Part shown: piece by piece, positions 9,001-12,000 of the stretch
Layout of the letters: every line of letters starts with the position of its first letter
How positions within the stretch are numbered: the first letter of the stretch is position 1
Program-made: the position numbers
Virus record (IMG/VR): IMGVR_UViG_2698536428_000020
Length of the DNA: 39,678 bases
Source of the DNA: a virus
Lineage: Duplodnaviria; Heunggongvirae; Uroviricota; Caudoviricetes
Reading direction: 5' to 3' (one strand)

Positions 9001-12000
9001 TTTCGCGCAAATTTTGCCGTGCTCTGAGATATGCAGGCGCTGCACCGTACCTGAACGGAATGAGGTTGCCACCTGGATACTCGAGCCGTGACCAAACAGG
9101 ATATAGCCACCGCTGGCACCGCTACGACGTTCAACGATGGTGAATGAGGCTCTCAGCCAGTCAGGGAGATGATCAAACGGTACAGCAATTTTTGTGCGGA
9201 AAATTTCACTGGCAGCCTGTTTATCCTGAGCGACGATCCCGCATTTGAGATGCGGAATGAATAATGCCTGGTCGAGAAGATAAATATCAATGGCTGTGGA
9301 AAATCCCAGCTGGCGCGCTTTCAGGATAATATTTTTATTGTGCATGCTCCGGAACAACTGGCGCTGCGCCGGTCGCATTCTGAAGGTGACCAGTTCACCT
9401 TTTTCGTTCTGTATTTTGTAGAGATGATTGAGCCGCCACCAGGGATTGCTCAGTTTAGTCATGATGAACAGACGTTGTTCAGCCTCGGTCATTTCTGACG
9501 GCTCATCACATCGCGGTTCATTCTTCCGGAATGTCATCCAGTCTCCCCGAATTACTCATTTCATGCAGCGATGACACGATGTCACTGACAGGCGTAACAA
9601 CGCCCCGACGCTGGCTGGTCAGAATATCGGTTTCAGCTCTGAGTTTATCTCTGGCGGCGTTGATTCTTTCCCGGTCAGCACGAAGTTTTGGTGCTGTCTC
9701 AGCCAGGACGTCCAGCGTCAGCAATGAGCGTTCAATTGACTCGATACGGGCAATATTCCGGTCAAGGGCCTGTTCAGCTTTGAGTATTTTGTCGTAAAGA
9801 GCAACACGGGTTTCCACGTCAGTTGCCTCTTCCAGGTCGGCGAACATCCCTTTAAGTGCCTTAGTTACTGAAAGTGCGCGGGCCCGGGTGAACACCAGTT
9901 CATCGAACAGCACCATATCGGACGCATCATCCATGAGGTTATCTGCCTCAAGATACTTCGCGTATCCACGGTGTCTTACAGCGTGGGTGTTTCGCTGAGA
10001 AAAAGCGTTTGAAGGTGGTAAAAGTCGGGAACCACGAATCCGTTTCGTTTCTGCCGAATTTGCGCAGTTTTTTTCAGAGTTTTTTGCGCATTTTTCATCG
10101 CCGGAACCCGCGTCATTGCAGGGTTCTTCATCTGAGATGTCATGATCGATTTCATGATCGGTTTTATGATCAATTTCATGATCGATTTTGCCCATTTTTA
10201 TACGGGTTCTGGCGGTGTTGTAATTAATCTTTTTCTTCCGGCACCAGTCCAGTAATGTTATTCCCGTTTCGGCATGTTCGCGTCGGAATGCCTGCTCCAG
10301 CTTTTTCCAGTCCAGCTTTGCCATGTCACGTTCTGACGTCCTGTGTTAAAAACTGATGCATAATGACCGCTGTGATTTTTCAGATTTCACACAGCAGCAC
10401 CATATTTGATCGATATTTGCACAATGCGGTTGTTTTATCCGGTTTCTTCCACCACCGCACCGGACAGGCGGCTTCGCGGGAAATCGCTCCCATCTCGTGA
10501 AAAATGAGAAAACCCGGTGTGCATCGTTTTTGATTATCCCCGCACACTCACGCAGATAAGGTGGCTGCGGTCTCTGTTAATGCGGGAATACGGCGACGAT
10601 GCGGCGCATGGCTATGTCAGGCTGAAATGCCTTTATCCGTTAAAAGGGATATCAGTTAAGTTATCCCGTGTAGGGTATAAGCCATTATCAAAGCCACTCT
10701 GTAGGGAATGGCTTTTGTAATAACTACTTCGCTTTTGCTTCCGCTCGCTTACGCCGGCGCTCTTCTTTCCTCTCGGCTTTTGCCATGTCCATGAATGCCT
10801 GCATGATCGAGTTCCGCATCATGTAGCTGACAAAGTGATGATTGACACAGCCGTTGAGGCGCAGCTGCTCGCCAAACTCATCCACCGAGGCCAATGCTTC
10901 CATCATGCCCTTCTCGCCTTTCATGAACTCTGAGAAGTCGCGCCCCGCTCTGGAGGCGCATTCAATGACACGATCACTCATCCCGGAAGCCCGGGGATCG
11001 TAATCTGCAGCTGGTTAGCCAAGGAGTTAATCTCAGCGACCAACACTGGCTTCGTATAGCGCCATGCCGCGAGCCCTTGTCCACAGAAGCTCGCCATATC
11101 TTTTTTCTGATCAAACTCATGGCACTTCATATTGAGCTGCGCACTTAAGCTGTTGCGATGCTGAAGTTCTCCGGTGAAGTAGTCATCCAGGACTTTATAG
11201 GCTGCATATTTAAATCCGGGGTTTAGCCATGCTGCATAATCATAAGCAACAAACTTCCCGCCATATGTTCCACCGTGTACACCGCGCTCAGTAAAAACCA
11301 CAGATTCGTGGTTTTTCTCCAGCTCGGCTAAGAACTCTTTGGTCTGCTTGTTTCTCAGGTAGTGGTATGGAGATTCAGATTCACTTTTACCACTGGCTTT
11401 CCACATATCAGTGAGGCAGATCATGCCATCTTCAGCGACACGGATTGGCTGATTGAAGAGGGTTAATGATTTCATGTCGTATACCTGTTCTTTGAAATGA
11501 ACCTTTGCCGCATAGGAAACCAGCCCACCGAGGCTCGCCAGCACTAACTGGTATCCTCAAAGGCTCATTCCAAAGGGGCAGGTTCGGTGGTTATCATGCG
11601 CTGCGGTGCGCGGTGAAATTCAGATATGAAAAAGCCAGCGATCATGCTGGCTCTGTTAATTCAAGCACTGAGTGCGGATATATTCCTGAAGCGTTCTCAG
11701 TGCTGCCTGGTCGCTGATGATTCCGTCTCTGATACCGAGAACGTTTCGTCCAGCAACTGGAGAGAGTTCGACGCTGGCATCATTGCCCACGCCGGAGGTG
11801 CCGGTGGCTTCACGCACGGTACCGGGGCAGGTGGCGTTGAGCCGCAGGCGCTTACGACCAGCGGCAACATCAGCACGCAGAGTTTCATTTTCAGCTCTCG
11901 CATCGGCTAATTCCCTCGAGTATTTAGCATCAAGCGCAGCAACATCACGCTGGCGCACCTGCATATCAGTAATGGTTGCGTTTGCCAGCTCCAGCTCTCT

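Follow-up and report, generated by a model that had tools for sequence, protein, structure and literature searches.

Four GATC sites stand at regular intervals inside the small terminase gene (terS) of a tailed phage (Caudoviricetes) held as IMG/VR virus record IMGVR_UViG_2698536428_000020; the 39,678-nt stretch analysed here is called the window. Do these sites mark the place at which the terminase recognises phage DNA and begins packaging (pac), or are they a by-product of a repeated peptide? An earlier note on this DNA, made from the sequence alone, had raised both possibilities, with the pac site of phage P1 as its model. Our analysis points to the first answer: the four sites, each within a YGATCA hexamer, probably constitute a binding array for the phage's own small terminase subunit, TerS, and would be the recognition part of a P1-like pac in a 933W-like Shiga toxin (Stx) phage that packages by the headful mode.

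The GATC array and its counterparts in terS relatives

The window represents a 933W/Sp5-like Stx phage. Its terS is 100% identical to that of Shigella phage Ss-VASD and 99.4-99.7% identical to those of VT2-Sakai, phage 86, TL-2011c and others, and counterparts are annotated as terminase small subunit in 933W, VT2-Sakai, phi24B and others. The + strand at 10141-10188 reads CATGATCGATTTCATGATCGGTTTTATGATCAATTTCATGATCGATTTT. Direct reading and a pattern search both confirmed the four TGATC(A/G) motifs described earlier, namely TGATCG, TGATCG, TGATCA and TGATCG in + strand order, with start-to-start spacings of 12, 12 and 12 bp (Table 1). Tandem Repeats Finder delimited the repeat at 10136-10188 (period 12, 4.4 copies, 82% matches), and a repeat search returned four copies of 16 nt at 10137-10188. 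Read on the coding strand, the successive units are ATC GAT CAT GAA, ATT GAT CAT AAA, ACC GAT CAT GAA and ATC GAT CAT GAC. They do encode a peptide repeat, as had been noticed: IDHE IDHK TDHE IDHD at TerS residues 47-62, each GATC being made by the Asp codon GAT and the C of the His codon CAT. The proposal that the sites share one helical face did not hold, as a 12-bp period on a 10.5-bp helical repeat turns each site by ~51 degrees and sets sites 1 and 4 ~154 degrees apart.

The array is the sole spot in the window with at least three GATC per 48 bp, where ~0.04 such clusters would be expected; the four sites are tandem copies and therefore not independent events. GATC is depleted across the whole window (115 observed vs 173 +/- 12.5 in shuffles), and the sites nearest to the array lie at 9235 and 10408, the latter not conserved in L032. 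Codon choice bears on the same point. GAT accounts for 303 of the 501 Asp codons of the window (198 are GAC), and before a codon starting with C it accounts for 37 of 89 (GAC 52). Within the array all four Asp codons are GAT, despite the window-wide avoidance of GATC.

An AlphaFold2 model of TerS, built with 20 family members, has three short predicted helices (residues 6-20, 24-31 and 35-41; pLDDT 75-88), a region without predicted secondary structure at residues 45-106 (pLDDT below 50) and confident long helices across 130-238. The array directly follows the predicted recognition helix and falls in the unstructured residues, so it would be coded at the start of a disordered linker. A Pfam search found no family for TerS or TerL, a PDB sequence search with the TerS family profile gave no relevant match, and Foldseek of the model against the PDB returned coiled-coil noise only, with no E below 0.1.

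Polymorphism was counted in 21 distinct 268-aa terS genes of the window lineage. Only 2.0% of sites vary in the array (1 site in 51, the Y of YGATCA) and 3.7% in the part coding for the helix-turn-helix (HTH), compared with 28.5% in the remaining linker (about 10% without a recombinant block) and 8.6% in the C-terminal part. The array is as invariant as the HTH domain, though it sits inside the predicted disordered linker. The GATC periodicity that the earlier note had proposed to compare among related terS genes is conserved in this sense, while its length is not. Most often there are four units, the state of two clusters with 558 and 256 member sequences; LC645409 and its sister records have three, L034 and P0025 have five, and forms with one, two or seven are rare.

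These features can also be read as a coding-only repeat, in which slippage units accumulate in a tolerant disordered linker of TerS and GATC is a by-product of Asp-His codons. The four motifs lie in one frame, their units are near-identical, the region is predicted to be disordered, and the copy number is polymorphic, from 1 to 7. Given one frame and recent copies, the window lineage alone cannot separate constraint on the DNA from constraint on the peptide, and the exact 12 bp in the window reflects recent tandem duplication, not a strict requirement. The same DNA pattern also arises in many unrelated viral open reading frames (ORFs). When 2.9 million viral contigs were scanned without bias for GATCA repeated four times at 12-bp intervals, at least 120 stretches came up. 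Most of them are perfect, plain coding repeats located in unrelated ORFs, and the pattern by itself therefore does not identify terminase genes. The terS profile matched 10 of 120 scan ORFs: five of the 933W type, one distinct terS relative (L127) whose seven TGATCA are read in two frames, as V-I and as D-Q or D-H, and four PacA-like proteins.

Relatives of terS were gathered by a protein search (379 matches) and from viral-contig DNA loci, one genome per species and selected contigs encoding specific matches. Their conserved N-termini (MAK-DW ... G-I ... W-C ... Y-x-T/S-A-R-R-Y-I-K) are directly followed by a low-complexity stretch with a 4-residue periodicity, for example SAQK/NAQK in E. coli relatives. 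In ~80 distinct terS genes, a lineage-specific hexamer (TGCGCA, TTCGCA or YGATCA) occurs 4-7 times in the 240-nt stretch after the HTH, compared with about 0-0.8 per kb in the rest of terS and the flanks. In every class their positional profile is limited to the interval +100 to +250 nt, counted from the terS start.

The TGCGCA class is the best represented, with 51 distinct genes carrying 5.8-7 hexamers per 240-nt linker against a background of 0.3-0.6 per kb in other terS sequence and 0.2-0.8 per kb in flanks. The hexamer is palindromic and usually appears as TGCGCAA in the arrays. E. coli relatives (75-77% identity) have 5-7 TGCGCA in about 225 nt with a modal spacing of 12 bp, and similar arrays occur in Citrobacter, Serratia, Yersinia, Brenneria, Xenorhabdus and Aeromonas prophages. 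All three frames are used, often in one gene, as CTG CGC AAA (L-R-K), xxT GCG CAA (A-Q) and TGC GCA AAx (C-A-K/N); across genes the frames give the peptides A-Q, L/V/M-R-K/N and C-A. A Pectobacterium/Brenneria lineage has five TTCGCA in two frames and zero elsewhere. Since the same DNA word recurs in different frames, which a peptide repeat does not explain, the selected object appears to be the DNA. A spacing of 12 bp was considered as a conserved requirement and rejected, as the hexamers of Aeromonas relatives are mostly 9, 10 and 14 bp apart and those of P1 7-15 bp.

In the window, YGATCA replaces the TGCGCA of the closest relatives in the same 12-mer frame (A-N-Y-G-AT-C-A-N-R-A-A vs A-R-T-G-CG-C-A-R-A-A-A). 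Salmonella prophage terS genes (59-61% identity) carry a TGCGCA coding for K-L-R-K and then three or five YGATCA at exact 12-bp spacing; their peptides (S-D-Q-K, S-D-H-K, N-D-H-E, S-D-Q-K, N-D-H-N) alternate between Gln and His while GATCA is kept. A literature search, with few subscription journals in scope, found no description of TGCGCA, TTCGCA or GATCA arrays in terS, and the TGCGCA-array terS genes of enterobacterial and Aeromonas prophages (phrog_370) are apparently undescribed.

The hexamer changes together with the helix that presumably reads it. Within phrog_370 (85 distinct genes), recognition-helix residues sort perfectly with the hexamer: A-R-R-Y/H with TGCGCA, A-K-R-Y with TTCGCA, and A-R-T-R/Q with GATCA. 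The distant Providencia phage PSTCR3, with an A-K-R-Y helix, has TGCGAA/TTCGCA in both orientations. Where the N-terminal DNA-binding domain has been replaced, the class hexamers are absent and other motifs occupy the same place: in a Salmonella contig (L086), TCCGTC three times and then GGACGGA four times in the linker, and in Klebsiella phage vB_Kpn_Chronis (MN013086.1, L121), GTACGCA seven times in two frames. Brenneria has both the TGCGCA and the TTCGCA class, so the host does not dictate the motif. Three IMG/VR contigs (L032, L033 and L037) are natural recombinants. They are 97-100% identical to the TGCGCA-class phage L050 from -250 to +30 and from +265 onward, and 95-100% window-like from +30 to +265, a ~235-bp cassette that holds the HTH helices and the GATC array.

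A further line of evidence is homology to the P1 protein PacA, for which P1 facts were taken from the GenBank annotation, PMC10028697 and PMC11260489. P1 pac comprises 161 bp inside pacA with seven TGATCA/G repeats that contain Dam sites, and pacase is believed to recognise pac in its hemimethylated form and to cleave it once methylation has proceeded further (PMC10028697; PMC11260489). Synonymous recoding of the hexamers lowered the P1 titre ~9-fold (PMC10028697). In the annotated pacA, four TGATCA/G and then three (spacings 7, 12, 15 and 12, 11) flank the integration host factor (IHF) site and the annotated pac cuts, just after the N-terminal coding part (...N-P-N-T-A-R-R-Y-L-R...). They lie at codons ~65-78 and ~108-117, compared with terS codons 47-62 for the window array, and TGATCA is encoded in two frames (V-I or M-I; D-H or D-Q).

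The window TerS matches phrog_1711, the P1 PacA family, at E 3e-5 over residues 5-94, and PacA matches phrog_370 at E 1.9e-4. Profile-to-sequence hhalign places TerS 6-47 on PacA 3-44 (E 8.6e-5, probability 60%), and pairwise BLASTP is weak (E 0.009). The similarity covers the N-terminal HTH domain and is limited to about the first 45-100 residues. On contigs of P1 size (~92 kb), the genes of four PacA-like proteins (425-437 aa) carry five TGATCA at exactly 12 bp immediately behind the HTH, and the units differ from one another (R-D-Q-A, G-D-H-N, H-D-H-L, S-D-H-A, S-D-H-Q). The terS profile matches PacA-like ORFs of such contigs (L138 and L187) at ~1e-11 to 1e-12 in a small local database, and an alignment of N-termini forms a continuum from 933W-type TerS through P1-like proteins to PacA.

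Taken together, the hexamers kept at the same place across two or three frames and different peptides, an array far more conserved than the remaining linker, a hexamer type that follows the HTH and was exchanged together with it in one cassette, the exclusive use of GAT in a GATC-avoiding window and the homology to PacA make the coding-only explanation, which the earlier note had left possible, unlikely.

Proposed packaging start and rival explanations

TerS would consist of an N-terminal HTH, a flexible linker of ~60 residues and an extended helical C-terminal part. During late infection, a TerS oligomer could use several of its HTH domains to bind adjacent hexamers within terS on concatemeric DNA. 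That several HTHs of one oligomer take a hexamer each is suggested by the variable spacing within the family (7-15 bp) and by the length and flexibility of the linker. Bound TerS would then recruit TerL, the product of the next gene, which would make the first cut nearby, and headful packaging would continue from that cut. Reading along terS, our guess, by analogy with P1, places the cut at most about 100 bp downstream of the array, in the interval that separates it from the TGCGCA elements (~10060-10140).

Each hexamer contains a GATC that E. coli and Shigella methylate, and binding or cutting would therefore probably depend on methylation, as in P1, with an effect on binding that may run in either direction. 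As no dam gene was found in the window, where the [DNS]PP[YFW] motif is absent from every ORF of 80 aa or more, host Dam would act. In 933W, generalized transduction and terminally redundant DNA have been reported (PMC3752737), which fits pac-type packaging. PhageTerm classed the 933W-like Stx2 phage Lys19259Vzw as 'Mu-like', because its ends matched host DNA (PMC7946995); the call is uninformative as to terminase cuts, and it suggests that the packaging start of the group is not resolved by standard tools. Records that end inside terS (phi296, phi346 and phi367) were considered as terminus evidence and rejected, being simply opened at the terL start.

Several points weigh against a TerS-binding array in a P1-like pac. 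Arrays of 3, 4 and 5 units are common, and others with 1, 2 or 7 exist. In the window lineage all GATC motifs share a single frame and stem from recent tandem duplication. At least 110 unrelated viral ORFs have four GATCA at a 12-bp period as plain coding repeats. The co-variation of helix and hexamer rests on perhaps five or six independent clades, and the pairing is not a simple code, as TGATCA goes with an R-R-Y helix in P1 and L127. By the hhalign probability given above, the homology with PacA of P1 itself is marginal, and TerL has no pairwise similarity to P1 PacB (BLASTP E 2.7). The window holds a single cluster of four GATC hexamers, not 4 + 3 flanking a cut. No match to the IHF consensus WATCAANNNNTTR was found on either strand of 9900-10450 by a consensus scan, which may miss weak sites, and no adenine methyltransferase was found among the ten largest early ORFs of the window. 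Packaging-start or end mapping, or binding data, for 933W-like phages (933W, Sp5, phi24B) were not found in the searchable literature. The P1-like site first suggested thus gains from the family arrays, the co-variation and the PacA homology, and loses on the second cluster, the IHF consensus and a PacB-like TerL.

A different purpose for the same binding is slightly less likely still than a coding-only repeat: TerS or another DNA-binding protein could bind the array for, e.g., terS/terL autoregulation, with the true pac elsewhere. Co-variation and cassette swap show a matched protein-site pair and are silent on what it is for. Yet in P1 PacA, the only characterised homologue, the equivalent hexamers are pac and flank the mapped cuts; scans of 9900-10750 found no promoter-like or terminator-like sites; and pac inside terS is the rule in P22, Sf6, SPP1 and P1. 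SeqA, a host protein, binds pairs of nearby hemimethylated GATC sites, and a Dam/SeqA element that tunes transcription or replication timing without the terminase would suit four GATC within 40 bp of a GATC-poor genome (at least two within about three helical turns, which is necessary for such an element, not specific to it), but it is highly improbable because most relatives carry GATC-free TGCGCA, TTCGCA or GTACGCA arrays at the same place, the conserved property being a hexamer array matched to TerS and not methylation. SeqA might still bind pac as an additional layer.

If the array is the TerS recognition site, a broader and more speculative idea can be put forward tentatively. The HTH and hexamer stretch might be a portable packaging-specificity cassette, whose variants (TGCGCA, TTCGCA, GTACGCA and YGATCA) would restrict co-resident prophages to their own DNA and could be exchanged by recombination in one step, as in L032. 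In Stx phages and some Salmonella prophages, the switch of the core from CG to AT would then have put a Dam site in each element, coupling the start of packaging to methylation, and hence replication, state as in P1.

The location of the packaging start matters in several ways. The 933W-like phages, which are short-tailed, spread Shiga toxin genes and are capable of generalized transduction, and a 48-bp candidate makes the location directly testable with the protein unchanged. Such knowledge would aid the reading of Stx-phage virion sequencing, the prediction of which chromosomal or prophage DNA is mobilised in multi-prophage strains, and the making of packaging-defective or packaging-specific Stx derivatives and phagemids, as done with P1. 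The candidate also raises the question of whether Dam methylation gates particle production, since a putative Dam is encoded by phi24B, a related Stx phage (PMC3342100). As cited in the same paper, 933W lysogeny becomes unstable in dam mutants. Furthermore, the natural helix-hexamer pairs of the family offer material for studying DNA reading by small terminases.

Features around the array and in the rest of the window

Table 1. Terminase genes, predicted TerS segments and repeat elements of the window.
Feature	Position	Strand	Basis	Remarks
terL, large terminase, 568 aa	7831-9537	-	phrog_2, E 2.1e-53	Overlap with the terS end; presumably the nuclease/ATPase that TerS recruits
terS, small terminase, 268 aa	9518-10324	-	phrog_370, E 3.8e-125	
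Predicted disordered linker segment, residues 45-106	10007-10192	-	AlphaFold2	Holds the GATC array and the TGCGCA elements
TGCGCA element 1	10061-10066			In E-K-C-A-K-N; probably a remnant or minor second cluster
TGCGCA element 2	10085-10090			In K-N-C-A-N-S
YGATCA array, four 12-bp units (TGATCR on +)	10137-10188	-	Repeat and pattern searches	Candidate TerS recognition array of pac
Hexamer 4 (gene order), TGATCG	10143-10148	+	Pattern search	Codons I59-D60-H61
Hexamer 3, TGATCG	10155-10160	+	Pattern search	Codons T55-D56-H57
Hexamer 2, TGATCA	10167-10172	+		Codons I51-D52-H53; polymorphism in the array is confined to one base, the T/C that precedes GATC
Hexamer 1, TGATCG	10179-10184	+	Pattern search	Codons I47-D48-H49
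Degenerate TGCGCA-type element, TGCCCA on +	10189-10194			K-M-G-K; relatives have TGCGCA encoding K-L-R-K
N-terminal three-helix domain segment, residues 1-44	10193-10324	-		Homologous to the P1 PacA N-terminus
Predicted recognition helix, residues 35-41	10202-10222	-	AlphaFold2	Lineage-specific A-R-T-R
Unit-like isolated element TGATCGATATT	10407-10417	+	91% identical to array unit	83 bp upstream of the terS start

The two TGCGCA elements belong to a second repeat of period 12/24 at 10058-10095 (TTTGCGCAGTTT / TTTTGCGCATTTTT), in which they are coded as C-A in E-K-C-A-K-N-S-E-K-N-C-A-N. These elements are less constrained than the GATC array, and the first of them was lost synonymously in two sublineages, as TGTGCA in the L011 group, which includes VT2-Sakai, and as TGCGCC in L031. 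The unit-like element upstream of terS was considered as a second half-site and rejected, as it reads CAATCA in L032, which retains the array; it is probably not essential. An inverted repeat that brackets the array (10096-10110 / 10203-10217; 15 nt, 13/15 complementary) was treated as chance: one arm sits in recognition-helix codons, the other is variable in close relatives, and we estimate that ~0.1 pairs of this kind would be expected by chance.

An insertion in other prophages touches the array itself. In L119 (LC727841.1) and at least 12 sister Stx2a prophage records (H35-H40, H91-H97), an IS3-family insertion lies exactly after the third GATC unit, and its ORFs in the L119 terS carry HTH_Tnp_1 and rve domains. 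The insertion truncates TerS at residue 59, and these prophages should therefore be packaging-defective.

Collinearity with Ss-VASD extends over window positions 1-18750 only, the early region being different. On the minus strand lie an esterase-like ORF with SASA/DUF1737/DUF6645 domains (14551-16491) and the Shiga toxin A subunit with its RIP domain (17275-18231), and an integrase at 38515-39678 reaches the window end. ARAGORN found no tRNA genes in the window. A perfect 16-bp direct repeat in 2.1 copies (TTGGTGTGACTGCACA) at 28625-28657 stands just upstream of a 358-aa ORF (27462-28538) that has no Pfam match and adjoins an IstB/DnaC-like ATPase gene (26715-27455); these repeats may be replication-origin iterons.

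Comparison with known packaging systems

With P1 pac, the window array shares TGATCA/G hexamers that contain Dam sites, are clustered inside the small-terminase gene downstream of code for a homologous N-terminal HTH, and are coded as Asp-His or Asp-Gln. The spacing of ~12 bp is also common to both (7, 12, 15 and 12, 11 in P1; exactly 12 in the P1-like L138 and L187), and P1 and 933W-like phages alike package by headful and perform generalized transduction. The window differs in that two TGCGCA elements, 50-80 bp away, take the place of the second GATC cluster and no IHF consensus was found nearby. Its TerS has 268 aa and another C-terminal part, compared with 397 aa for P1 PacA, and its TerL is not PacB-like beyond the general terminase family.

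The TGCGCA-array terS genes belong to the same family and have the array at the same position, in the same 12-mer architecture (A-N-Y-G-[AT or CG]-C-A-N-R-A-A). Unlike the window, they have a CG core without a Dam site, a recognition helix A-R-R-Y instead of A-R-T-R, and longer arrays of 5-7 copies over three reading frames.

P22 and Sf6 pac resemble the window array in that they lie inside the small-terminase gene of a headful phage and are recognised by TerS. P22 pac is a single asymmetric site of about 22 bp, however, and its TerS is unrelated by sequence to that of the window, as judged by the Pfam and PDB searches. The R-sites of lambda cosB are located outside the gene and act with IHF, and both these and the SPP1 pacL/pacR boxes involve other sequences and proteins and contain no methylation site. 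In their layout, the lambda and SPP1 sites are nonetheless close to the window array: several short repeats, each bound by an HTH of an oligomeric small terminase near the cut, which is the arrangement that the YGATCA hexamers would provide within terS.

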